Shown here: positions 3,707 through 47,546 of the stretch, piece after piece
Position numbering within the stretch: position 1 is the stretch's first letter
How the letters are laid out: each line of letters opens with the position of its first letter
Virus record (IMG/VR): IMGVR_UViG_3300027375_000001
DNA: 64,000 nucleotides
Source of the DNA: a virus
Lineage: Duplodnaviria; Heunggongvirae; Uroviricota; Caudoviricetes
Strand: one strand, 5' to 3'
Program-made: the position numbers and the translations under genes
The notes under the pieces: model-generated
What the model saw: only the letters and a program-made list of their open reading frames with translations
Database searches by the model: none
What the model was told of the DNA's origin: nothing

Positions 3707-3734
3707 AAAAAAGCCCCTCCGAAGAGGGGCTTTT
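3707..3734 (-). terminator. Rho-independent terminator with C(UUCG)G loop
   Basis: Minus strand AAAAGCCCCTC-TTCG-GAGGGGCTTTTTT downstream of the 3752..4135 gene. Confidence 0.85.
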
Positions 3735-3751: not shown

Positions 3752-4135
3752 TTATTCGTCAAAAAGCTTGACAACCTTTGGGTCTGAAATCGGCTGCACC
3801 AAAGGCGGCGGTGCAAACATTGCTTCATATTGGCCGTACAACTTGAAGTCAAAGGTGGCGCCATTGGTAAGTGCAATTGAACTCTTTGGATAATTGAAGA
3901 CAATTGGTTCTTCGAGGCTTGCGCCGAATTCGCGGAAGAATGCAGGCAAGAGTTGTAGTGCCATGTTCTGTCCTTGGGGAACAACATGAACTACTACTGG
4001 ATTCTTGATTGCTACTGTAGTATCTGTATCGAGATGTGGAACCAATTCACCGAATCCAGTGCGTCCTGCTGGATCGATAAATGCGATAAGGTTTTCCTTG
4101 ACGAATGTGCGGATGTTTGGTGTTTCGTTACTCAT
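3752..4135 (-). CDS. Hypothetical protein (possible Sm/SH3-like small beta-barrel)
   Basis: 127-aa ORF with its own upstream promoter-like motif and a downstream terminator. Confidence 0.7.
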   Translation of the reverse strand: MSNETPNIRTFVKENLIAFIDPAGRTGFGELVPHLDTDTTVAIKNPVVVHVVPQGQNMALQLLPAFFREFGASLEEPIVFNYPKSSIALTNGATFDFKLYGQYEAMFAPPPLVQPISDPKVVKLFDE

Positions 4136-4175: not shown

Positions 4176-4649
4176 TCAACTATTATTTCTTGATTTTAAC
4201 TCTTTTTCAACTGCATTGATAAATTCAGTGTGTGCTTTTGGTACTGATTTAAATTGAAATCCATATTTTCTCTTGCTGAGGTCTTTGTATACCTTTTGTA
4301 ATTCTGATGTATTGATTTTGCTGAGGTCATTATCTTCGTCATTAGATTCTTTGTATTCCTCTTTGTCTTGTTTTAGTTTATCGTGGGCTTTTTCAAATTT
4401 TTCACGATCATTTCCTTTATAGGAAACACCCGTCATTTTAACCCAATTGGCTACTCTATCATAGTTTTGTTTTGATGGATTCTTTTCAAGGAAATTCAGA
4501 ACGAATGACAGTTTTTTGCTCGGGTCTTTGATGTCTCTAGCGTCTGTTCGAACAATCTGCCATTTGATGTCAAATTTATTGGTTTGTTTCGACTCTCTTA
4601 AAATTGATTCTTGTTCCGCCGTGTTGATGTATTCTAAAAATGTATTCAT
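4176..4649 (-). CDS. Hypothetical protein, possibly a late/head-internal protein
   Basis: Start re-called at MNTFLEYI (4649) because the longer ORF overlaps the PRTase gene. TAAATT lies just upstream; N-terminal ILRE|S motif. Confidence 0.6.
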   Translation of the reverse strand: MNTFLEYINTAEQESILRESKQTNKFDIKWQIVRTDARDIKDPSKKLSFVLNFLEKNPSKQNYDRVANWVKMTGVSYKGNDREKFEKAHDKLKQDKEEYKESNDEDNDLSKINTSELQKVYKDLSKRKYGFQFKSVPKAHTEFINAVEKELKSRNNS

Positions 4650-4657
4650 ATAATAAT

Positions 4658-5128
4658 TTATTCCCATGGAAATACAATCCATTCATCTAACTTCCATTCT
4701 GTGTTGAAAATATGCCGACATGGCCATTCGCACTTTCTTTTACGACCAATCGTGGCGACAATGATTCGTTCATGGATTTTATCTGTATTGATAAACGATC
4801 TGCACTCATGATCAATTCTCCAGATAATATTATTAATGACTTTTCCGGTATCCAGGACATCATCAAATATAACCAAGTACCTTTGAGAATTAAACAATGA
4901 AAGAAGATTAAGACGAATTAGATCTGTTTCATTAATTGCTGGTGGTTTGAATTCGGTGGATGTCAAATTTCGTATCGCATTGACTGTCATTGTGGCTACA
5001 GGCCACCCTCCATAATATGGTGCCAAAATTACAAAATCATTTAGCTTATCTGAATAATCTGTAACGAGCGTTTGTGCTAATGATTCAGTACTTTCCTCTA
5101 CGTAATCCCAAGATAGATAAGTCTTCAT
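4658..5128 (-). CDS. Type I phosphoribosyltransferase (Gpt/Hpt-like)
   Basis: N-terminal LSWDYVE, PRPP-binding loop LVIFDDVLDTGK and C-terminal WIVFPWE typical of xanthine-guanine PRTases. Confidence 0.85.
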   Translation of the reverse strand: MKTYLSWDYVEESTESLAQTLVTDYSDKLNDFVILAPYYGGWPVATMTVNAIRNLTSTEFKPPAINETDLIRLNLLSLFNSQRYLVIFDDVLDTGKVINNIIWRIDHECRSFINTDKIHERIIVATIGRKRKCEWPCRHIFNTEWKLDEWIVFPWE

Positions 5129-5130
5129 TG

Positions 5131-5694
5131 TTACCAGAGCTCCTGATCTAGTTTAGCTAAAATATATTCAACATAACTATCGGGGTTACCTTGCGGAACT
5201 TGCCAAATAGGCGTAGAAAGAGTGCTTGTAATATCTAGCCACCGATAGCCAATATCTGACATTAGATTGTAGATCTGCTCCTGCCATTGAACATCCAATG
5301 ACCGAAATCCGTCATCTTTCATTTCAAGAGGTGGTAATACGAAAATATGATCATATTGATGCATAGTCTCCGCATAAATTTCATAGAATGTTTTCCATTC
5401 CTTGAATGAATATTTTCCAATGAGATAATCATGCGTAGCGTACGTAAACGCATCTAATGCACCCCTGTCGGTGATGAACTTCGGATGTCTATAGATATTA
5501 CGATGATGCTCCTCAAGAATAGTCATCTGAGATTCATAATTCGAATCTTGATTGATTTTAATATTCTTTTCTTTCACCAGCCTTCTTACAGGCTCATCAA
5601 TAAAATGATACTGGTCAAAATTACCGCACTCTTTAAGTTTGCGCATTAGAGTACTTTTACCCGCACATTGGGGTCCGCTAATACAAATTTTCAT
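5131..5694 (-). CDS. P-loop nucleotide (NMP) kinase-like protein, thymidylate kinase/AAA_28 type
   Basis: ICISGPQCAGKSTL P-loop, FIDEPVR, FITDRGALDAFTY, YDHIFVLPP...DDGFRS. Confidence 0.8.
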   Translation of the reverse strand: MKICISGPQCAGKSTLMRKLKECGNFDQYHFIDEPVRRLVKEKNIKINQDSNYESQMTILEEHHRNIYRHPKFITDRGALDAFTYATHDYLIGKYSFKEWKTFYEIYAETMHQYDHIFVLPPLEMKDDGFRSLDVQWQEQIYNLMSDIGYRWLDITSTLSTPIWQVPQGNPDSYVEYILAKLDQELW

Positions 5695-6485
5695 TCAGTA
5701 ATATATCTAAAGGTTTTTATGTTATCAAGTATAATTTGCAGTTGTTCATCAGAAACCTCGCTATGAATCAAATCATTCATTTTGATTTTCTTCTTCTGAT
5801 AAATTCCCAATGCGTCATATTTAATACCAAGCAATCCGTGTAGAATTGGGCTTGATGTGTCTACAGAATTAATATCATTATATCCTCGATATCCCAATTC
5901 AATTGGCAAAGAACATCCGAGCAAATGATGATAGCAATCCGATTTCCATACTCCTGTTTCTTTGAGATGTTTCACAAATTGAATTCTGCCATTTGCTTGA
6001 TCCCAGTCTCTAGTCTCTGAATCTTTAACAAAGAAATCATGATTGAATCCGATGGCGATATTTCTAATGCCATTTTTGTAATATGCTACATAACACTCGG
6101 TCAGCTCATCCATTGATTGGCCTTGCACAACTGCCATTGGTAACAAATTACGTGGAGACCTGTTGAATTTGTCATGATATGTCGACATCCAAACCCTCGC
6201 ATTATGAATACTGTCTTCTTTATCTCCCAGAACATCTGGCAAGATGTACCTAGTAGGATTCAATCCCTGCACATGTACTGCATATTTATCCCAATCAAAA
6301 GCATGCCCTAGTTCAAATATACTGTTATCAAGTATTAGCTGATTGACTGGAATCTTGCTTTTGCTGTAGAAATGGTCTTTATATTCTTGTGATTCATCTA
6401 AAAGATGAACTAGAACATATTCATAGTGCGTTACTTTCTGTACTTGTTTTAATATTGCTATTGGTGCTTCGTGTGCTATTTTCAT
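5691..6485 (-). CDS. tRNA-guanine transglycosylase (TGT)-fold protein, DpdA-like
   Basis: TGT motifs in the correct order: ILDNSIFELG, ILPDV, MAVVQG, IAIG, HHLLG, SVDTSSP (nucleophile Asp). No C-terminal zinc site. Confidence 0.75.
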   Translation of the reverse strand: MKIAHEAPIAILKQVQKVTHYEYVLVHLLDESQEYKDHFYSKSKIPVNQLILDNSIFELGHAFDWDKYAVHVQGLNPTRYILPDVLGDKEDSIHNARVWMSTYHDKFNRSPRNLLPMAVVQGQSMDELTECYVAYYKNGIRNIAIGFNHDFFVKDSETRDWDQANGRIQFVKHLKETGVWKSDCYHHLLGCSLPIELGYRGYNDINSVDTSSPILHGLLGIKYDALGIYQKKKIKMNDLIHSEVSDEQLQIILDNIKTFRYITE

Positions 6486-8839
6486 AAGGCAAAAAGATCT
6501 AAAAAATCACATTGATATTGTCTGCTCATGTCTGGAATTTGCCAGCCGATACAACTATACACTCTTTCAATGCAAGGTGCAACTAGCTTCTCAAACATTT
6601 TTTCTGTGTCGATTTTAATGTCGAACTCTGGTGGGATTGTGTCATTAAATCCAATACATTTGAGCCCGTATTTGTTTTGGGCTGTGTATACATACCGAAT
6701 CTTTGTGCCCGAAATGATTGGCATGTATTTTGATTTCAAATTCAATGTATTAATTAATGTATTGAAATAAATCGCCGATTTGACATGAATAGGAGTATGC
6801 AATGCAATATTGAATCCGTTCGACTGTGAAGCATATTTCTCATAATCTTTAATAGAGGAACGCAATGCAATATCATCAATTGGTAAGGTCTTGAAACTCT
6901 CATAACACTCTCTATACTTTGCGTCAGTAATCGCACGATCTTTTGATTTAAACGCGGTCGTAATGATATCCTTCATCAACTTCTTAACAGCATTTGAATA
7001 TGTACTGCGCTGAACTTCAACACCAACATATTTGTATTTGTGTTTGTTTCTTTTGCCATCATACCTCACACTAAGAATATACCGTTTCTTTTCCAAGAAA
7101 AGACCAACATCACAAATTGATTCTCTCTTGAAGAAGTATCGCGGATCTACTGAATGTAATGTATTGCGCGCCCAATGATTAATTTTATCATTGATGAATG
7201 ACTGTAGTGTATCCGTTGCTGCAACGCATTCTTCTGTAACGTCTCCGTTTTCCTTTAAGATCGGAATATTATGTTTTGTGAGGTAATCTTTAATAGTTAA
7301 ATAAACCGAATCTGTGTCTCCATATACGATATAATCCTTATCCGGCAAACCATTTTCCTCGACAAAGAATTTATTAACAATCGATGCTGCTTGTTTAATA
7401 ACCGCCTGCCCTGTTTCCGTAATACTTGCAGCCATATCAATATCATAGAACGGACTGTATTTGTTCGCATAAGTACCATACGCAGAATTCAAGAAAATCT
7501 TGATTGTGTACTGCATCTGATCCAAATGCTTAATCTTATGTTTAATTTCTGGTGTTACTTGCTGTGATTCAAGCTGTTCAATTTGGTTTTGGATAACAAC
7601 CCGTTCTTGATAAAGTGAATCAATAAAAGTCGGACAAATGCCTTTGACATCTTGACGATACAAAACACCTGCTTGTGATAATGCAAGCCTTCCTTTTGTA
7701 CAAAATTCCTCAAGCTGGTCTATGGTAAATACTTGTTCTTTTTTGTTGATAAATCTTACTTTGCATTCGGTGTCATCCCTGTAAATGATTTTACCGATTT
7801 TTGTTTCCGGTGAAAGATTCAGGGTGATGATCGTATTTGGATATAGGGAGTTGGCGTCAAATGATACAACTGCTTCATTCAACCCACGCTGCGGTTCTCG
7901 GACATATCCACCAACATAATCCTCTTGTGTTGCAACTGCATTGAATGTCGGAATGATTTTATTCATGCGATTAGCTTCCTTGCACATCGCACCAGTCACT
8001 ATCATAATTTTACCCAATGAGTCTTCGATTTTGGTAAATCCTTTATAAGCTAAGAATCTCGCAATAGTAACATAATTCAATTTTTCGTCCAACAATCTGA
8101 CAAGGTTTACGTCATGAATATTGTAATGAACAAATGAATTCCAATCGCTTTCAGCAAGCGCTGCCAAATCCGACGCATTGTGGGCCAATTTACCAATTTC
8201 AAGCTCTGCTGCTGCAATGTTGTTAAGAGAATATGAATCTTGTTCTCCTCTACTAAAGGTCTTGTACAAGTCCATATAATCAAGACAAGTCATTCCTCGA
8301 ATATACCACTTATTAATTTCTCTGCCAAACTTTGTAGCAATTCCTTGTCGAACATAAAGCTTGCGCACAGGAGAGAGCATCTTTGCTTCATCCTCTCCCA
8401 AAACATAAGAAATCCGATTAATGATATATGGAATATCAAACCCTTCAATATTCCATCCGGTTACTGCATCTGGATAATCTTTAGACCAAAACTCTAGAAA
8501 TTTTTGGAGCAACTCCGTTTCGGTTCTACAATAGGTATAATGGATTCTCTGAACATCCAACTCTTTAATTCCTTGCGATGCGAACGCGGCGTTGATGCCA
8601 GATTTTTCGTACGGATGTAAACCCCAACTATAAAAGCTTTCAGATATGTTATCATAAATTGTGATTACGTTGATTGGATGTTTTGCTTCGTCTGCTTCTG
8701 GAAATTCTGACTGATGAGTATAGCATGAATTATGATATGAAGTCCATTCCTTTGTCTCTTCGTCCCAGATTTCATATTGCTCAAGTAGTTGCGGATTTCC
8801 ACGGATTTCACCCAATGTTGTTTCAATTACTTCATTCAT
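6482..8839 (-). CDS. gp43: DNA polymerase family B, C-terminal fragment (ExoII/III plus polymerase domain)
   Basis: TGWNIEGFDIPY (ExoII), YNIHDV (ExoIII), SFDANSLYP, KIFLNSAYG, YGDTDS. ExoI is absent from this ORF. Confidence 0.95.
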   Translation of the reverse strand: MNEVIETTLGEIRGNPQLLEQYEIWDEETKEWTSYHNSCYTHQSEFPEADEAKHPINVITIYDNISESFYSWGLHPYEKSGINAAFASQGIKELDVQRIHYTYCRTETELLQKFLEFWSKDYPDAVTGWNIEGFDIPYIINRISYVLGEDEAKMLSPVRKLYVRQGIATKFGREINKWYIRGMTCLDYMDLYKTFSRGEQDSYSLNNIAAAELEIGKLAHNASDLAALAESDWNSFVHYNIHDVNLVRLLDEKLNYVTIARFLAYKGFTKIEDSLGKIMIVTGAMCKEANRMNKIIPTFNAVATQEDYVGGYVREPQRGLNEAVVSFDANSLYPNTIITLNLSPETKIGKIIYRDDTECKVRFINKKEQVFTIDQLEEFCTKGRLALSQAGVLYRQDVKGICPTFIDSLYQERVVIQNQIEQLESQQVTPEIKHKIKHLDQMQYTIKIFLNSAYGTYANKYSPFYDIDMAASITETGQAVIKQAASIVNKFFVEENGLPDKDYIVYGDTDSVYLTIKDYLTKHNIPILKENGDVTEECVAATDTLQSFINDKINHWARNTLHSVDPRYFFKRESICDVGLFLEKKRYILSVRYDGKRNKHKYKYVGVEVQRSTYSNAVKKLMKDIITTAFKSKDRAITDAKYRECYESFKTLPIDDIALRSSIKDYEKYASQSNGFNIALHTPIHVKSAIYFNTLINTLNLKSKYMPIISGTKIRYVYTAQNKYGLKCIGFNDTIPPEFDIKIDTEKMFEKLVAPCIERVYSCIGWQIPDMSRQYQCDFLDLFAL

Positions 8840-9008
8840 TGTTTCGGTAGTGTATCATGCGTTTTCTTGTGCATGGATTAATTTTCGATAAATAGATTTC
8901 AAATTCTTCGTCTGACATTTTTTTAAGTCTTGACGATGTTAATTGTTTTTGGTTTGTTTTGACTCCTTTTTTTGCTTTAGATATTGCTTCCCCGCGTTTT
9001 TTGTGTGT
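8832..9008 (-). pseudogene. Remnant 3' end of a probable free-standing homing endonuclease gene
   Basis: Open frame with no start at its 5' end: THKKRGEAISKAKKGVKTNQKQLTSSRLKKMSDEEFEIYLSKINPCTRKRMIHYRNNE*. It has a NUMOD3-like 'RGEAISKAKKG' motif, and its TGA overlaps the gp43C start (ATGAATGA). Confidence 0.45.
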
Positions 9009-9402
9009 CTATCTTTTTGCGTATTTTGACTTTTTTATCATTTTTATACTTTGCAGTATAAACTTCAATATCCAAATAAAATGTTTTGAATGGCAAATGA
9101 GACCAATCAAATTCTTTATCGCGATAAAGATCAAGTAAAAATTGTTGCTCTGCTCTCAAGTTATAGAACACACGACGAATGCCTGCATCCTTTACATATT
9201 GATTTCTTGCTGATTCGTTTTTGAATACAATCTTTTTAAGGTTGGTATTGAAAAGACTTTTTGCATCATACTGAGCACTGTTTGTCTCTACATACAAGAA
9301 TGGCTCATACTCAAAATCATACATTTTGCGTTTGCCATTTTTATCCCAACTCCACAAGAAAATCTTCTTGCGGCTATTGTCATAGTAAACATTTCTCCAC
9401 AT
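8977..9402 (-). CDS. gp43: DNA polymerase family B, N-terminal fragment (N-domain plus ExoI)
   Basis: MWRNVYY...YEPFLYVE...RRVFYNLRAEQQFLLDLY is a gp43-like N-terminus. ExoI FYLDIEV is followed by a basic tail and a stop. Confidence 0.9.
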   Translation of the reverse strand: MWRNVYYDNSRKKIFLWSWDKNGKRKMYDFEYEPFLYVETNSAQYDAKSLFNTNLKKIVFKNESARNQYVKDAGIRRVFYNLRAEQQFLLDLYRDKEFDWSHLPFKTFYLDIEVYTAKYKNDKKVKIRKKIDTQKTRGSNI

Positions 9403-9441: not shown

Positions 9442-10698
9442 TTATACATTGAATCCATTATTAGCGATGGCTGGTCTATTTTCGGTTGGCATCTTGAACA
9501 GCATCTCAACATGTTCATCAAGATGGTCATCTAGCCATCTCTTCTCTGCAAATTTGCGCGCCTTCACTGATTGCTTAAGGTATTCATTTCTATCTTTAAG
9601 CAGTGTTTCTAATTTAGAAATCATTTCATCGCCTGTTTTGAATTTGAACGGCGCCTCTTGGTATGGTTCCATGTCTTGATATACTCCGGGAATACCTAAT
9701 GCACCAGCCTCAAGCATTTTGATATCCGATTTTGCACGATTGAATTCATTACGTGCGAGTGGTGCGATTACGGCATTGATATTAAGAGATCCAAATGTTC
9801 TTGGCATTTCGTAAATGTTTACCCACGGCACGTGAATAATTTCTTTTCGATTTACAAAGGGCAGCAATCTCATCGGAATGCCACCCATAAATACCCACTG
9901 AAACTTATTCCGCGTTTTGATAATTGCTTCAATAACATGTGCAAAGTCATCTTGTTGATTCGCAGTATTAGCCGGGTCAAAATGAGTGCCAGATCCCATA
10001 TACCCGATTATTGGTTTCTTTTTATTTTTGACGTAATTCTTGTCAATCTTAATCGGGTCATAAAAATCATGAAGCCAGAATTTAGGGGCATAGTTTGGAA
10101 TGACGTTGATTTCTTGCTTGCCTGATTTTTTCTTATAGTAATCTCTCATGTATGGAGAGACTACACACATTTCATCACATAGATTAATAATTTCTATAAT
10201 ATTACTTCTAATTTGGGGATCTGTAAATGCAGGTCTGCTTGTGTTGTATAGGGGGATATCTTCGGAGAATACAACATCATCCACTTCGTAGATCAATTTA
10301 AATCCAAACTCTTTTTGCATTGATTTCAAGAATTTAACAAACATGAGTTGTTCGTTAGTTGCTTGTCTTTGTAATTTGATAGCATTTACTGGTCTGTAAA
10401 AATTGGGATCCGTATTCATTTGTGTCAACCCATTGACTACTGTTTTATTATACCCATTCATTAGCAATTCTGGCCATGACATTCTCCATAATCCACACCC
10501 ACCATAATCAGCATAGAAATGAATAGCTCTCTTGAGGCCCGCACCTGGAGGTTCAGTAGTATTGACAACCTGTTGAGAATTTCTCAACTGCTCTGTTTGT
10601 TGATCCATCCTATGGCGGAAGAATTCTGGATTATAATTTCCAAATGCGGGCTTGCCGAAAACACTACCATGAATATGTGGCTGGGTATTAAAATGCAT
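9442..10698 (-). CDS. GT-B fold glycosyltransferase (GT4-like)
   Basis: YADYGGCGLWRMSWP, IYEVDDVVF, IGYMGSGTH, APLARNEFNRAKSDIKMLEAGALGIP. Confidence 0.8.
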   Translation of the reverse strand: MHFNTQPHIHGSVFGKPAFGNYNPEFFRHRMDQQTEQLRNSQQVVNTTEPPGAGLKRAIHFYADYGGCGLWRMSWPELLMNGYNKTVVNGLTQMNTDPNFYRPVNAIKLQRQATNEQLMFVKFLKSMQKEFGFKLIYEVDDVVFSEDIPLYNTSRPAFTDPQIRSNIIEIINLCDEMCVVSPYMRDYYKKKSGKQEINVIPNYAPKFWLHDFYDPIKIDKNYVKNKKKPIIGYMGSGTHFDPANTANQQDDFAHVIEAIIKTRNKFQWVFMGGIPMRLLPFVNRKEIIHVPWVNIYEMPRTFGSLNINAVIAPLARNEFNRAKSDIKMLEAGALGIPGVYQDMEPYQEAPFKFKTGDEMISKLETLLKDRNEYLKQSVKARKFAEKRWLDDHLDEHVEMLFKMPTENRPAIANNGFNV

Positions 10699-43562: not shown

Positions 43563-44404
43563 TCACCCTCGACTAAGCTTTTGGCGACATCAATGTAGTT
43601 AGTTTCCATCTTAGACAAAAGCTCGCGGCGTTTGATGTATAAATCGTAGTCCCACTTTGTAGCCAATTTTACATCGATTTCTTTAATTTGCTTGACGATT
43701 TTTTCATCCATGATAACATCTTCACCGATAATGGTTTCATCGGCATCATCGATTAGTTCAGTGATGTTGTATTCTGCATTAAGACGTTCCATGTACTCAT
43801 CAATGCTCTCGCCATTGACGAGACCTTCTTGATTGATTTCAGCAAATAACTCACCGTCTGCTGTTTCAAGCACCATTCTATGCGATGCTGGCGATGACGA
43901 TTTATACTCAAACCCGCAACGTGATAATCTCTCAATCACGATTTCAGACGGAGTTAATTCACTTTCAAAAGAATCAGCCATTCTAATGTTCTTAGCCTTG
44001 CGATCCGATGCGATAACAAACCCAGCAATAATTTCTTTAAGTTCAGCTAAGTCGCTTGAAACACGCGCAACCTTATCCGAAATACGTGATGCAATTCCCT
44101 TAAACACACTATTATCTCTATCTAATACGTTGACTTGTCGGTTAATAGATCCAGTCGCAGTATCATTTAGGTATTTGACAAACTCATCAATATTTTGAAT
44201 CCAATCCTCTGCTGCGGCAACTTCGGCTTTGTATCCAGTGTTAGGGGGTCCAGGCTCTACGTCTAATGCATCTTCAGGCACATCATTTTTTGCAAGACGA
44301 TCACGAAGAGGTGCCTCATCTTGTTGTGCATCATAATTGGTTTCAGATTCAGGAGCTTCCTGTTCGAGTAATGTGTTTAGGAAAATTTGTTTGAGGTTTG
44401 CCAT
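43559..44404 (-). CDS. Acidic hypothetical late protein
   Basis: Start re-called at MANLKQ; TAAATA at 44409-44414. Confidence 0.6.
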   Translation of the reverse strand: MANLKQIFLNTLLEQEAPESETNYDAQQDEAPLRDRLAKNDVPEDALDVEPGPPNTGYKAEVAAAEDWIQNIDEFVKYLNDTATGSINRQVNVLDRDNSVFKGIASRISDKVARVSSDLAELKEIIAGFVIASDRKAKNIRMADSFESELTPSEIVIERLSRCGFEYKSSSPASHRMVLETADGELFAEINQEGLVNGESIDEYMERLNAEYNITELIDDADETIIGEDVIMDEKIVKQIKEIDVKLATKWDYDLYIKRRELLSKMETNYIDVAKSLVEGD

Positions 44405-44422
44405 ACAATATTTATTTATTAG

Positions 44423-44451
44423 TTGCAACCATCATTTCCGTATGTTATATT
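44423..44451 (+). promoter_or_regulatory. Sigma70-type promoter for queC cluster
   Basis: TTGCAA-N17-TATATT with an extended -10 TG, 5 nt before the ATG at 44457. Confidence 0.5.
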
Positions 44452-44456
44452 TATTT

Positions 44457-45194
44457 ATGAATAAGGTTATTATCTTTAGCGGCGGCTTAGATTCCACAGT
44501 GCTGTTGTATGACGTCGCTTCAAAATTAGAAGAAGGTGAAGTTTTATATTGTTTGAATTTCTTCTATGGCCAAAAGCATTCCATTGAATGTGCCAGAGCA
44601 GCTGCAGTAGTAGATCATTTGGCGGCGCTTTCGAACAACAAAGTAATTTTACATGAAATTTCGTTGAAGCATGTTTTTGACTACTTGCAAACATCTGCAT
44701 TGCTCAACGGAGAATATGACATACCAAAAGCAAAAGATGTTCTTGGAGATCCGCAGCCACTAAGTTACGTGCCTAATCGTAATATGATTATGCTGAGCAC
44801 TGCGGTAGGTTTCGCTGAAAGCACAGAATCAAATGAAGTATATTATGGAGCACAACAAGCAGATACTCTGTCGGGTTATTGGGACGCTTCTGCAGAGTTT
44901 TTGGAAGCAATTAATAGAGTTATTTGCCTTAATCGTAAAAATAGCATTGAAATTAAAGCACCTCTAATGACGATGAATAAAGAAGAAATCATTAGAAGAG
45001 GTGCAGAATTAAACGTACCATTCGAACTGACATGGACATGCTACGACCCGGTTTATATTCCGGGTGTTAAAACACTTTCATGCGGCGAATGTGTCGCATG
45101 CGCCAATAGATTACAAGGATTTATTAATGCCGGGTTAAAAGATTCCATGGAATATGCAATTTCCATTGACTATGAGAAATACGGCATTCAATGA
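44457..45194 (+). CDS. queC: 7-cyano-7-deazaguanine synthase QueC
   Basis: FSGGLDS, YGQKH, YVPNRNMIMLS, APLMTMNKEEII, TWTCY...CGECVAC..R. Start at MNKVII. Confidence 0.9.
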   Translation: MNKVIIFSGGLDSTVLLYDVASKLEEGEVLYCLNFFYGQKHSIECARAAAVVDHLAALSNNKVILHEISLKHVFDYLQTSALLNGEYDIPKAKDVLGDPQPLSYVPNRNMIMLSTAVGFAESTESNEVYYGAQQADTLSGYWDASAEFLEAINRVICLNRKNSIEIKAPLMTMNKEEIIRRGAELNVPFELTWTCYDPVYIPGVKTLSCGECVACANRLQGFINAGLKDSMEYAISIDYEKYGIQ

Positions 45195-45871
45195 GAATTA
45201 TGAAAAGTACTGATATTTATTTCATCACAGCGACAAAAATGCACCATTACGATTTTTGGTGTAATTCCCATCTTGGAAAGTTCTTGAGAAAGGCTAAAGT
45301 CTCGGACCAGACATATGTTGCTTATAACAATAAGCAAGGCCTATCCGAAATTTACAACCATGCAATTTTGGAATGTGAGCATGATTATGTAGTGTGTGTT
45401 CATGATGATGTCGTAATTGAAGATATTTTTTGGTTTGAAAAATTGAAAGAAGGATTTGAAAATTACGACATCTTGGGTCTTGCTGGTAGTTCTAATACAG
45501 AAATCAAATCACCGGCACTTTGGCATTTAATGTCACCTAGAGAACAATGGATGGGATTTGTGAATCATTATATTCCAAATACAAACCAATCTTTCGCAAC
45601 ATCTTTTGGACCTTCCCCATCTAGATGCATCGTTATGGATGGGCTGTTTTTAGCTGCTAATAGAAAGGCACTTATGGATAATGGTGTGCTTTTTGATCCT
45701 CAATTCGATTTCCATCATTATGATATTGATTTTTGTCTTCGCGCAAATAAAGCAGGGTTGAAAATGTCAACAGTTCCTATCCATGTCACACACGCATCAG
45801 GCGGACTGAGTTCTACAGATAATGAAAGATGGAAAAATAGTGAAAAGAGGTTTTTAGCAAAGTATAGTTAA
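45191..45871 (+). CDS. GT2-like glycosyltransferase (StrF/Glyco_tranf_2_5-like)
   Basis: GLSEIYN, VCVHDDV, ILGLAG, MDGLFLA, FDFHHYDIDFC. Confidence 0.8.
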   Translation: MRIMKSTDIYFITATKMHHYDFWCNSHLGKFLRKAKVSDQTYVAYNNKQGLSEIYNHAILECEHDYVVCVHDDVVIEDIFWFEKLKEGFENYDILGLAGSSNTEIKSPALWHLMSPREQWMGFVNHYIPNTNQSFATSFGPSPSRCIVMDGLFLAANRKALMDNGVLFDPQFDFHHYDIDFCLRANKAGLKMSTVPIHVTHASGGLSSTDNERWKNSEKRFLAKYS

Positions 45872-45875
45872 TCAT

Positions 45876-46496
45876 ATGTGCGGAATTTTTAAATCAACTA
45901 AATTGGAAAGATTCAATGAATTATACGACGCAAATACCGTTAGAGGGTTTAGTAGTTTTGGCGGAGTATTTCGGAGAAATAATAAACACACTATATACAA
46001 AAGTGATGACATGGATATCAGATTCAATGCGAATGATGCATCTCTTTATCTTGGTCATCTGCGAGCGCCTACTGGGATTGGTCATACATTTACACCAATA
46101 AGATGCCATCCTTTTGAATATCGGAATTGGTTGGTTGCTCACAACGGCATCCTAACAAACCACAAAGAGCTTATTCCCGAACACATTCGAGACAATCATA
46201 CATATGAAATAGATAGTAGTGTAATCCCGTTTCAATTGCATATCCATGGCTTTCAATGTTTTGAAAAATTTAAAGGAACGTGGGCTTGTTGGATGTATAA
46301 TATTTTAACCAATCAGCTTTTTGTTACACGTTCGGATAATACTCTATTCATGGATCCAGAGACTGGGGATTTTTCTTCAACAGCTACAAATAGATGTAGT
46401 CAGAGCATCAACCCTAGAGTAGTATACGAAATTAAAGATAATGAATTCATCGAAGTCCACAGTTATCAAACCAAGCCTCTTTATTTTATTCCATGA
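45876..46496 (+). CDS. Class II (Ntn) glutamine amidotransferase
   Basis: N-terminal MCGIF (Cys2), GHLRAPTG, HPF, VAHNGILTN, IDSSVI. Confidence 0.85.
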   Translation: MCGIFKSTKLERFNELYDANTVRGFSSFGGVFRRNNKHTIYKSDDMDIRFNANDASLYLGHLRAPTGIGHTFTPIRCHPFEYRNWLVAHNGILTNHKELIPEHIRDNHTYEIDSSVIPFQLHIHGFQCFEKFKGTWACWMYNILTNQLFVTRSDNTLFMDPETGDFSSTATNRCSQSINPRVVYEIKDNEFIEVHSYQTKPLYFIP

Positions 46497-46954
46497 GATG
46501 CAATGCTGGCATTGAGCCTAATATGCTATTAGATCAGCATTTAATCGCAGAGCAATCTGAATTGCTTATTGTGGATGGCATGTTGAGAAAAAATAAATTC
46601 AAAATGAAATCAAAAGTACCCAACGAATTTACGCTTGGGAAAGGACATATTTTATTTTGGACTGATAAGATTTTATACCTGCACAAGCGACATGTCGAAA
46701 TAAAAGATGAAATTATTCGCAGGGGATATAAGGTAACAGACAAGAAGTTTATCCTCGACGACTATCCAGATGAATTGCTCAACGATTGGAGACCCCACAA
46801 TAATGCAGTCGAAATAATCAAAAATCGAATTGCTGAAAAGATTTTGGCAAAAGGAGATAAAATATTTTGGCGCTATCAAGGATTATATATTGATTCTAAA
46901 GACATCCCGCTATATATTAACAAATTAACAACATCACCACTATATTATGTTTAA
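46493..46954 (+). CDS. denV: Pyrimidine-dimer DNA glycosylase, endonuclease V-like
   Basis: LLDQHLIAE..EL, FTLGKGHILFWTDKILYLHKR, RRGY align with T4 DenV. Confidence 0.85.
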   Translation: MRCNAGIEPNMLLDQHLIAEQSELLIVDGMLRKNKFKMKSKVPNEFTLGKGHILFWTDKILYLHKRHVEIKDEIIRRGYKVTDKKFILDDYPDELLNDWRPHNNAVEIIKNRIAEKILAKGDKIFWRYQGLYIDSKDIPLYINKLTTSPLYYV

Positions 46955-47546
46955 CAAAGAAATTACACAATACGACGGCTCGCTGATTCATCAAAGATTT
47001 GCTTATAGATATTTTGGCAAGAATGTACATCCGCTTGGCAATATCATGGCATTTCGAGGATCAATGGAAGTAACAGATAATCTCGTTGACCTTGAAGATG
47101 CTCTCAAGAATGATTACATTTACAGTGAGGACGCCATTCAGTTTGTTTGGGAACTTCCAAACGTCTGCAGGTTTGGTGGAGTAAGTTTCCAACGATTGTT
47201 CGCAGCGAAAGTTGCACAGCTTCTATGGGAAGAAGGAGTGCCAGGAGTATCTATCGAAGGAGACGACATTATGGTTAACAACGAATTTGTATCAGACCAT
47301 CATTCATTGGTTCTTCCAAAAGGAAAGGCTAGTGTTTCTATTTGTCATGAAGTAAATGGTGCAAGTCTTGGACACTTAGCAGTGAATATCAGTGCAGGAG
47401 CAAAGGCACCAGCATTCGCTTACTCGACACGAGATGTATTAGGAGATAGTGATAAATTAACGAAATTTACAAATAATGTCATTAATGAGTTTTATGTTAT
47501 GATTGATGACATTTTTGTCGCAACCTCAAAGACGGCAATTCTCTAA
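46947..47546 (+). CDS. DUF366-family protein (lipoate/biotin ligase-like fold)
   Basis: YDGSLIH..FAYR, AFRGSMEV, LVDLEDA, FQRLF, EGDDIMV, KASVSI, GHLAVNI. Confidence 0.7.
   Translation: MFNKEITQYDGSLIHQRFAYRYFGKNVHPLGNIMAFRGSMEVTDNLVDLEDALKNDYIYSEDAIQFVWELPNVCRFGGVSFQRLFAAKVAQLLWEEGVPGVSIEGDDIMVNNEFVSDHHSLVLPKGKASVSICHEVNGASLGHLAVNISAGAKAPAFAYSTRDVLGDSDKLTKFTNNVINEFYVMIDDIFVATSKTAIL

Follow-up and report, generated by a model that had tools for sequence, protein, structure and literature searches.

How do some phages replace every guanine of their DNA with a 7-deazaguanine? The problem is unsolved. The DpdA3 subfamily of transglycosylases, defined by Cui, Hutinet et al. 2023 on proteins of Cellulophaga phage phiST (CGPG_00065), Campylobacter phages and vB_FspM_immuto (immuto), a phage of Flavobacterium, occurs in phages with 100% of G replaced, and its members are taken to act post-replicatively, on DNA (PMC10516641). 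Deazaguanine insertion was still treated as a nucleic-acid-level event in 2025 (PMC12783734), and the literature assumes that DpdA3, the enzyme credited with the full replacement, acts on finished DNA. Neither the family nor the fact that DpdA3 phages with complete replacement exist is new. The locus described here, from an uncultured tailed phage (Caudoviricetes, IMG/VR record IMGVR_UViG_3300027375_000001), raises the question whether the exchange takes place on DNA at all. The window, that is the whole stretch of 64,000 nucleotides that was analysed, reads the reverse strand of a virus genome that is complete at 195,888 bp and has terminal repeats. At 4658-8839, on the minus strand, it contains four open reading frames (ORFs) of 785, 264, 187 and 156 aa in a tight run, a DpdA3 gene among them:

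6482-8839, minus strand: family-B (T4 gp43-like) DNA polymerase, C-terminal main part, 785 aa (DNA_pol_B 4.3e-34, DNA_pol_B_exo1 7.4e-18, phrog_262 3e-175)
5691-6485, minus strand: predicted zinc-less 7-deazaguanine transglycosylase of the DpdA3 family, with tRNA-guanine transglycosylase (TGT) fold, 264 aa (tblastn, HHalign, AlphaFold2, motifs)
5131-5694, minus strand: AAA_28/dNK-like P-loop kinase, 187 aa (Pfam, PDB profile, AlphaFold2/Foldseek)
4658-5128, minus strand: divergent Gpt-like (6-oxopurine type) phosphoribosyltransferase (PRTase), 156 aa (phrog_8995 8.5e-5, hidden Markov model, PDB profile)

The junctions, read in the sequence, bear out the layout given in the first-pass annotation, a run with 4-bp overlaps or 2-bp gaps and a queC gene in the same window. 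The polymerase stop overlaps the DpdA3 start in ATGA, the DpdA3/kinase junction is an ATGA overlap too, and 2 bases separate kinase and PRTase. As far as the nucleotide sequence tells, DpdA3 is here translationally coupled to a split T4-type family-B polymerase (PolB). The run is best explained as the part of a 7-deazaguanine DNA-replacement pathway, of DpdA3 type, by which this T4-like phage inserts the base.

Our favoured proposal, which we hold with confidence midway between doubt and conviction, is that the substrate on which DpdA3 exchanges guanine is free 2'-deoxyguanosine, as nucleotide or nucleoside, instead of DNA, and that kinase and polymerase then complete incorporation. The near-universal and repeatedly renewed coupling of DpdA3 to a kinase, together with pyrophosphatase genes in many loci, makes this a directly testable alternative to action on finished DNA.

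The TGT-fold gene is a member of the DpdA3 family

Searched against phage genomes by tblastn, the 264-aa protein matched just two groups, immuto and the CP220 group of Campylobacter phages. It is 38% identical (7e-43) to the immuto protein, which carries the annotation DNA guanine transglycosylase DpdA, and 36% identical (3e-37) to gp056 of CP220, in both cases over 99-100% of the length. Among the DpdA proteins compared by family profile, phiST CGPG_00065 was matched (HHalign probability 98.5%, E 3.8e-15, 238 columns), whereas DpdA1 of Enterobacteria phage 9g reached only 0.4% and went unrecognised.

General family searches did not reveal the fold. The sole PHROG to match was 19058, of unassigned function, no Pfam family matched, NCBIfam DpdA scored only 0.042, and the DpdA3 alignment, used as a profile against the PDB, retrieved no TGT; the TGT fold therefore had to be shown by structure. 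In the AlphaFold2 model, built on 38 homologues (predicted local distance difference test, pLDDT, 92.8), the protein is predicted to form a TGT-type (beta/alpha)8 barrel. Its best solved match is the DNA preQ0 (7-cyano-7-deazaguanine) insertase DpdA (7ui4, Foldseek 2.6e-8), followed by hundreds of TGT chains.

Residues invariant in the alignment of 38 DpdA3 sequences are D53 (in L-D-N-S), D84 (P-D), Q121-G122, H186-H187-L-L-G190 and D209 (D-T-S). When the alignment was compared by hhalign with the single E. coli TGT sequence, at 6.9% probability, Q121-G122 fell on I-Q-G, H-H-L-L-G on Y-L-M-G and D209 on the Asp of F-D-C. The F-D-C motif of E. coli TGT holds the nucleophile Asp. Both catalytic Asp of TGT-type transglycosylases thus appear to be kept, D53 being equated by motif resemblance alone. 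The family alignment has no conserved Cys or His after D209, and DpdA3, with 264 aa against 375-413 aa of TGT and DpdA, is about 120 residues shorter. In the absence of a Cys/His cluster DpdA3 is evidently zinc-less and devoid of the zinc subdomain. The earlier view of this gene as a zinc-less, DpdA-like protein of TGT fold is thereby upheld, the family being DpdA3 and not a new kind; the protein is a known DpdA3 family member, found in a lineage and context not described before.

Acidic isoelectric point was considered as a sign that DpdA3 does not bind DNA and was rejected: the DpdA3 median is 5.2, but acidity is shared by 9g DpdA1 (5.6) and E. coli TGT (6.0). In the DpdA3 tree, the clade formed by the window and its three closest relatives, the IMG/VR contigs L007-L009, sits on a long branch. 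Elsewhere in the family, contig L064 has a tandem pair of DpdA3 genes, and L022 (5261-6439) encodes a 392-aa DpdA3, longer by a domain of some 130 aa for which Pfam has no match.

A kinase accompanies DpdA3 in almost every locus

The gene after DpdA3 had been described as a P-loop kinase of nucleoside monophosphate (NMP) type. The P-loop assignment is confirmed by Pfam AAA_28 (5.7e-15, 56.3 bits against a cut-off of 27), with dNK matching weakly (7e-4); the NMP-kinase type is not. A profile of 28 members retrieved from the PDB the ribosylnicotinamide kinase of NadR (2.3e-6), dNK (1.5e-5), deoxyguanosine kinase (4e-3) and thymidylate kinase (6.6e-3). The AlphaFold2 model (pLDDT 91.2) was matched by Foldseek to deoxyadenosine kinase 2jat first (6.4e-7), then to deoxycytidine kinase and NadR, and to thymidylate kinase at 1.4e-5. 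In profile and predicted fold, therefore, the enzyme resembles nucleoside kinases (dNK, the NadR ribosylnicotinamide kinase) at least as much as NMP kinases. Its alignment keeps G7, G12-K13-(S/T)-T15, E34, R37, D76-R77 and D128-G-x-R131-S invariant, covering Walker A, the Asp-Arg pair and the LID Arg. The genes called 'thymidylate kinase' that adjoin DpdA3 in CP220 (gp057, 33%) and immuto (gp203, 27%) are its homologues.

We surveyed 83 DpdA3 loci, comprising 80 from IMG/VR (the best-scoring of more than 550), immuto, CP220 and the window, and clustered the neighbour proteins. The usual order is QueE, QueD, FolE, DpdA3, DpdN (a PurN-like formyltransferase), kinase, QueF, QueC and amidotransferase, followed by a dUTPase/DCD-like or a PRA-PH/MazG-like gene. 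Where at least 2.5 kb of downstream sequence was present (73 loci), a P-loop kinase was found within 4 kb on the same strand in 56, a small DUF3310 (PF11753) gene in 14, both in one and neither in four; among these four, tblastn found a kinase in two and one more has it further downstream. Over whole loci, 61 have the P-loop type, 16 DUF3310, one both and three none, two of the last three being contigs that end at DpdA3. A kinase is thus a near-obligate neighbour of DpdA3.

The DUF3310 gene occupies exactly the kinase slot. DUF3310 is the only Pfam domain of T7 gp1.7 (4.5e-23), which, as reported in the part of PMC11897194 that cites Tran et al. 2012, is a P-loop-less kinase converting dGMP and dTMP to the diphosphates. 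The window itself has the P-loop type. In the DpdA3 tree, DUF3310 loci fall into at least three well-supported separate clades, each adjoining P-loop loci, so the type of kinase has been exchanged at least three times and the slot has stayed the same. This place immediately behind DpdA3, or behind DpdA3-DpdN, is held across three polymerase families and in otherwise unrelated genomes.

The cultured phages agree with this picture. CP220, immuto and phiST all have, like the present phage, a homologous zinc-less transglycosylase of about 260 aa, an adjoining kinase of P-loop type (gp057, gp203 and CGPG_00066, respectively) and their own FolE, QueD and QueE; in phiST and immuto a replicative polymerase is nearby, as here. 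Only in the window, compared with these three, is DpdA3 coupled to a split T4-type PolB and then followed directly by kinase and Gpt-like PRTase. The present phage also differs from immuto in having neither QueF nor DpdN and from phiST in having neither DpdL nor MazG; its QueC is encoded 40 kb from the DpdA3 run, together with a separate amidotransferase and a glycosyltransferase.

Genes resembling pyrophosphatases recur in the same clusters: among 38 loci in which each flank of DpdA3 extends to 6 kb or more, 30 have one (DCD-like in 17, two MazG-like families in 8 and 5). In phiST a MazG-like gene stands two genes upstream of DpdA3, and the gene upstream of DpdA3 in CP220 is an HD phosphohydrolase fused to an AAA_33 kinase.

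As a control, 17 DpdA1 loci of 9g relatives were searched with the same models. FolE, QueE and QueD were each detected in all 17; a kinase was detected in one (marginally), DUF3310 in one, and PRTase and pyrophosphatases in none. Phage 9g, which replaces about a quarter of its G with dG+, likewise has a TGT-fold enzyme, FolE, QueD, QueE and Gat-QueC, beside clamp and polymerase, but its DpdA1 has 317 aa, replacement is partial, and kinase, PRTase and pyrophosphatase are missing from such loci.

Several kinase genes deserve mention in their own right. The phiST gene CGPG_00066 (L092:16382-16861, minus strand; AAA_18 9.4e-7), described as lacking homologues in other deazaguanine phages (PMC10516641), lies directly upstream of DpdA3, between DpdL and DpdA3. 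Contig L069 (6123-7079, plus strand), a locus without DpdN, has the DpdA3-linked kinase fused to a weak GNAT acetyltransferase-like domain (0.0023), a fusion through which a single small-molecule substrate may undergo both amine modification and phosphorylation. In L007 (10791-11289) the kinase frame is broken after residue 122 and in L008 and L009 it is intact; the break is an assembly error or a recent pseudogene. The genome of the window has a second AAA_28 paralogue of 234 aa (1.6e-13; 1e-25 against the model of DpdA3-linked kinases) at genome positions 128215-128919 (L088:4216-4920, plus strand), about 3.4 kb beyond the window start; it is oriented like FolE and lies 2 kb downstream of it. 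Two AAA_28 genes are present in CP220 as well.

The Gpt-like PRTase and its distribution

The name Gpt-like PRTase, used already in the first-pass annotation, is well founded. The window protein matches a model of PF00156-positive PRTases from other DpdA3 loci at 2.2e-12, and a joint profile retrieves from the PDB purine PRTases of archaea (1vdm, 5.7e-29; Sulfolobus GpT-1/2) along with E. coli xanthine-guanine phosphoribosyltransferase (XGPRT, 2.4e-15). On its own the protein falls under the Pfam PF00156 threshold, and NCBIfam matches reach merely 0.01-0.09. It keeps the phosphoribosyl pyrophosphate (PRPP) motif D89-D90..D93-x-G95 and the C-terminal W..FPWE, with D89, D90, D93, G95, W150 and W155 (near-)invariant. 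In the clade of the window and L007 the Arg of the R-G-G pyrophosphate loop is replaced by Tyr (Y-Y-G-G), whereas relatives have R-G-G; the Tyr qualifies the predicted function, and the homology is solid.

The PRTase is less constant than the kinase. It was found in 29 of all 83 loci, and in 18 of the 38 whose flanks reach 6 kb or more in either direction. The trio of transglycosylase, kinase and PRTase, whose co-occurrence had been put forward as a test of the pathway, therefore holds together in part: DpdA3 and kinase go together in nearly every well-flanked locus, and the PRTase does not follow them. Since no more than roughly one third to one half of DpdA3 loci have it, the PRTase looks like an accessory, which would most simply recycle guanine, rather than the entry step. 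The earlier annotation had left it to choose between activating the analogue and recycling released guanine; recycling is the simplest fit, and the distribution speaks against an entry step.

Purine-type PRTases beside FolE, QueD and QueE are known also from the nucleoside-antibiotic clusters of Streptomyces. TubE is a biochemically proven PRTase for 7-carboxy-7-deazaguanine (CDG) and PRPP, and TubE/ToyH resemble the window in this neighbourhood (PMC6112128). They belong to bacterial secondary metabolism, however, lead to a ribonucleoside product and have no TGT-fold enzyme at their side, and the nearest solved relatives of the window PRTase are the archaeal purine PRTases and E. coli XGPRT.

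Exchange on a free nucleotide or on DNA

The mechanism that we favour would run as follows. With free 2'-deoxyguanosine, as nucleotide or nucleoside, for its substrate, DpdA3 would swap guanine for a 7-deazaguanine base. The dedicated kinase would re-phosphorylate an analogue poorly handled by host guanylate kinase, comparable to the role of T4 gp1 with hydroxymethyl-dCMP, and host NDP kinase would finish the triphosphate, which the phage polymerase would incorporate to full replacement. The guanine set free would most likely be returned by the PRTase to GMP and on to GTP, which FolE uses; with lower probability, and fitting the distribution less well, the PRTase would ribosylate the deazaguanine base in the manner of TubE. 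We suggest, a little more tentatively than the exchange as such, that DpdA3 is the first enzyme of the TGT superfamily to work on a free 2'-deoxyguanosine nucleotide or nucleoside, and that together with its linked kinase, P-loop or gp1.7-type, it feeds 7-deaza-dGTP analogues to the polymerase.

Complete replacement through the nucleotide pool has precedents. T4 makes its hydroxymethyl-dCMP by a pathway of gp56 dCTPase, gp42 dCMP hydroxymethylase and gp1 dNMP kinase, and the Z-genome pathway consists of MazZ, DatZ and PurZ. The Z-genome pathway is summarised in PMC12783734. Their logic is alike: a pyrophosphatase supplies the dNMP, the base is altered at the level of the mononucleotide, a dedicated kinase follows, and replacement is complete. 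Unlike in these systems, the base changer here would be a TGT-fold exchanger, for which a free nucleotide would be an unprecedented substrate, and the genome has no obvious dGTPase.

Modification at the level of the nucleotide pool was the central idea of the first-pass annotation. It gains comparative support, short of proof, from the kinase linkage, the replacement by gp1.7-type genes in some clades and the recurring dNTP-pyrophosphatase-like genes, with the DpdA1 control essentially lacking these features. Exchange on the nucleotide would also explain three published observations, namely 100% replacement, the failure of DpdA3 to modify plasmid DNA when expressed in E. coli, and the free nucleoside of 7-amido-7-deazaguanine (ADG) seen in CP220-infected cells (PMC10516641). 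The DpdA3 literature that we searched makes no mention of the kinase, the PRTase or a nucleotide-level route. A modified dGTP was reportedly proposed by Crippen et al. in 2019 (PMC6884629), and the exchange suggested here would revive that proposal. If true, it would represent a new reaction class for the TGT superfamily and an enzymatic route to 7-deaza-dGTP analogues, useful for restriction- and Cas9-resistant DNA; the presence of DpdA3 with a kinase would then predict full replacement in deazaguanine phage genomes.

A number of points weigh against exchange on a free nucleotide. All characterised members of the TGT/DpdA superfamily act on a polynucleotide, and the published view is post-replicative (PMC10516641; PMC12783734). 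Linkage would be expected also if kinase and PRTase served only the recycling of guanine and GTP. The nearest structural relatives of the kinase are nucleoside kinases and gp1.7 is a dNMP kinase, so that the step catalysed may be nucleoside to NMP or NMP to NDP; furthermore, the DpdA3-linked DUF3310 proteins are small (about 88 aa), do without the first 120 residues of gp1.7 and are possibly not kinases. For the metagenomic set the 80 best-scoring relatives were taken rather than a random sample, and the DpdA1 control represents few independent lineages. In this genome, finally, searches for HD, MazG, PRA-PH and NUDIX genes were negative, as they were for the DCD-like and MazG-like families specific to the clusters, which leaves as sole candidate for clearing dGTP a dUTPase-family gene, perhaps an ordinary dUTPase.

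The rival that survives best keeps to the published model and is, in our estimate, a serious possibility, albeit not a probable one. DpdA3 would be a very efficient DNA-guanine transglycosylase acting after replication, and PRTase and kinase would salvage the released guanine to GMP, GDP and GTP for FolE, a loop that would be needed because a fully modified genome uses one GTP per G. It was proposed by the authors of the family (PMC10516641) and repeated in 2025 (PMC12783734), and it conforms to characterised relatives, which all act on tRNA or DNA, the best structural match (7ui4) being itself a DNA insertase. A Gpt-like PRTase suits guanine recycling, and about 5.4 kb downstream of it comes FolE, with the same orientation as the PRTase. 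The polymerase does not help to decide: its coupling to the TGT-fold gene had been read as a sign of a pre-replicative route, and we dropped this as evidence, since the DNA-acting DpdA1 of 9g also adjoins clamp and polymerase. What the salvage loop accommodates poorly is the kinase, which is dNK/NadR-like and not of the guanylate-kinase family, in cells where host Gmk already converts GMP to GDP. Nor does the loop account for a kinase that is nearly universal while the salvage PRTase is confined to 29 of 83 loci, for DpdA1 loci, which also release guanine yet do without both, or for the clustered dNTP pyrophosphatase genes, which would have no role. The negative result with DpdA3 in E. coli, and the loss of the zinc subdomain and some 120 residues relative to TGT and DpdA, are likewise unexpected for an efficient DNA-modifying enzyme.

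It is improbable that the linkage is incidental, with a general dNMP or nucleoside kinase and a general purine-salvage PRTase lying near DpdA3 as fellow early replication genes. AAA_28 kinases are indeed common in phages, this genome and CP220 each have a second paralogue elsewhere, and the run lies inside a long replication block. Chance neighbourhood would nevertheless hardly keep the kinase slot after DpdA3 (or DpdA3-DpdN) across three polymerase families in otherwise unrelated genomes, nor through at least three swaps of kinase type, and the linkage is absent from the DpdA1 control loci.

Very improbable is entry through the PRTase, as for tubercidin or toyocamycin, in which base and PRPP would give the nucleotide, the kinase the diphosphate, and ribonucleotide reductase the substrate of the polymerase, leaving DpdA3 to proofread residual G or to modify tRNA: the TubE precedent (PMC6112128) and the divergent pyrophosphate loop, whose Tyr for Arg could mean a changed substrate, are outweighed by the lack of the PRTase in half or more of well-flanked DpdA3 loci, with none seen in the 7-kb flanks of CP220 DpdA3 or in the 30-kb phiST stretch although both phages replace all G, and by the consequence that an analogue made at the ribonucleotide level would enter RNA and GTP-dependent processes too.

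Synthesis of the base

Synthesis genes in the rest of the genome had been named as a test of the pathway, and they are there. FolE (5e-49) lies about 750 nt beyond the window start. QueD (6.7e-16) is encoded elsewhere, as is a QueE-like protein that matches the locus-family model at 6.1e-39 and remains under the Pfam cut-off for radical-SAM proteins. With QueC in the window, whose earlier identification is borne out by PF06508, the phage makes its own base. Profile searches of the genome found neither QueF nor DpdN, which points to a base of the preQ0, ADG or G+ kind.

44337-45194, plus strand: QueC (7-cyano-7-deazaguanine synthase family; PF06508 1.4e-53, genome profile search 6.4e-55)
45876-46496, plus strand: stand-alone class-II glutamine amidotransferase, family f8 (GATase_6 6.2e-9)

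Behind QueC on the plus strand, at 45191-47546, lie a GT-2 glycosyltransferase, the class-II amidotransferase, a DenV-like pyrimidine-dimer glycosylase and a DUF366 protein. In 32-33 other DpdA3 loci, too, QueC has a member of this amidotransferase family after it; the glycosyltransferase does not recur in that way.

The dUTPase-family ORF (188 aa, PF00692 2.5e-21) lies outside the window, in a stretch with QueD at genome positions 147775-148889 (L089:2776-3890, plus strand), where it overlaps the QueD stop and is followed by the gp44 clamp loader; two genes upstream in this stretch is a DUF6884 protein. The ORF may be a pool-clearing enzyme or an ordinary dUTPase. In other genomes, a Vut_1/YhhQ-type putative queuosine-precursor transporter (PF02592 5.2e-21) occurs inside DpdA3 clusters, at L066:6146-6763 and in four other loci.

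Setting of the run in the genome

T4-type replication genes surround the run, namely gp46-like SbcC, UvsX, gp41-like helicase and gp32. Megablast of the region against 50,697 phage records gave no near-DNA match. Peculiar to this case are the T4-like genome, the coupling to split PolB, the kinase-PRTase pair directly after DpdA3, the lack of QueF and DpdN, the second AAA_28 paralogue close to FolE and the long-branch DpdA3 clade formed with L007-L009. Judged from its gene content, the window would add a T4-like lineage in which the module is part of the polymerase operon and the base chemistry, without QueF and DpdN, is different.

The features that flank the four genes are:

8977-9402, minus strand: DNA polymerase N-terminal fragment of the split family-B enzyme, 141 aa (BLAST clustering with the family of the 785-aa ORF)
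4176-4682, minus strand: 168-aa ORF, member of the same-strand run (family f58, after the PRTase in L007-L009)
3752-4135, minus strand: 127-aa ORF, last of the run (no family match in Pfam, PHROGs or NCBIfam)
3709-3734, no strand assigned: strong, bidirectional terminator-like hairpin (11-bp stem with 6 GC pairs, T-run on the plus strand and a complementary site on the minus strand)

The 141-aa polymerase fragment has no Pfam match of its own and shares one BLAST family with the undivided 859-aa polymerase of the relative L007. Past the PRTase, which overlaps the next ORF by 25 nt, the two small ORFs extend the run. The 168-aa ORF has no Pfam, PHROG or NCBIfam family and its Atlas search was uninformative; for the 127-aa ORF the Atlas gave weak leads only, to viral hypothetical or Sm-like proteins. 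The hairpin ends the run of polymerase, DpdA3, kinase and PRTase just before uvsX.

Polymerase genes also appeared in phiST, where the unannotated gap downstream of DpdA3 (L092:11630-15230, minus strand) encodes a polymerase of DnaE type (Pol III alpha), spread over two consecutive ORFs (525 and 673 aa) with PHP, DNA_pol3_alpha, finger and HHH domains. In the window, a 418-aa glycosyltransferase-like gene (9442-10698, minus strand; phrog_7162 2.7e-21) has the gp46-like nuclease subunit on one side and the N-terminal fragment of the polymerase on the other.

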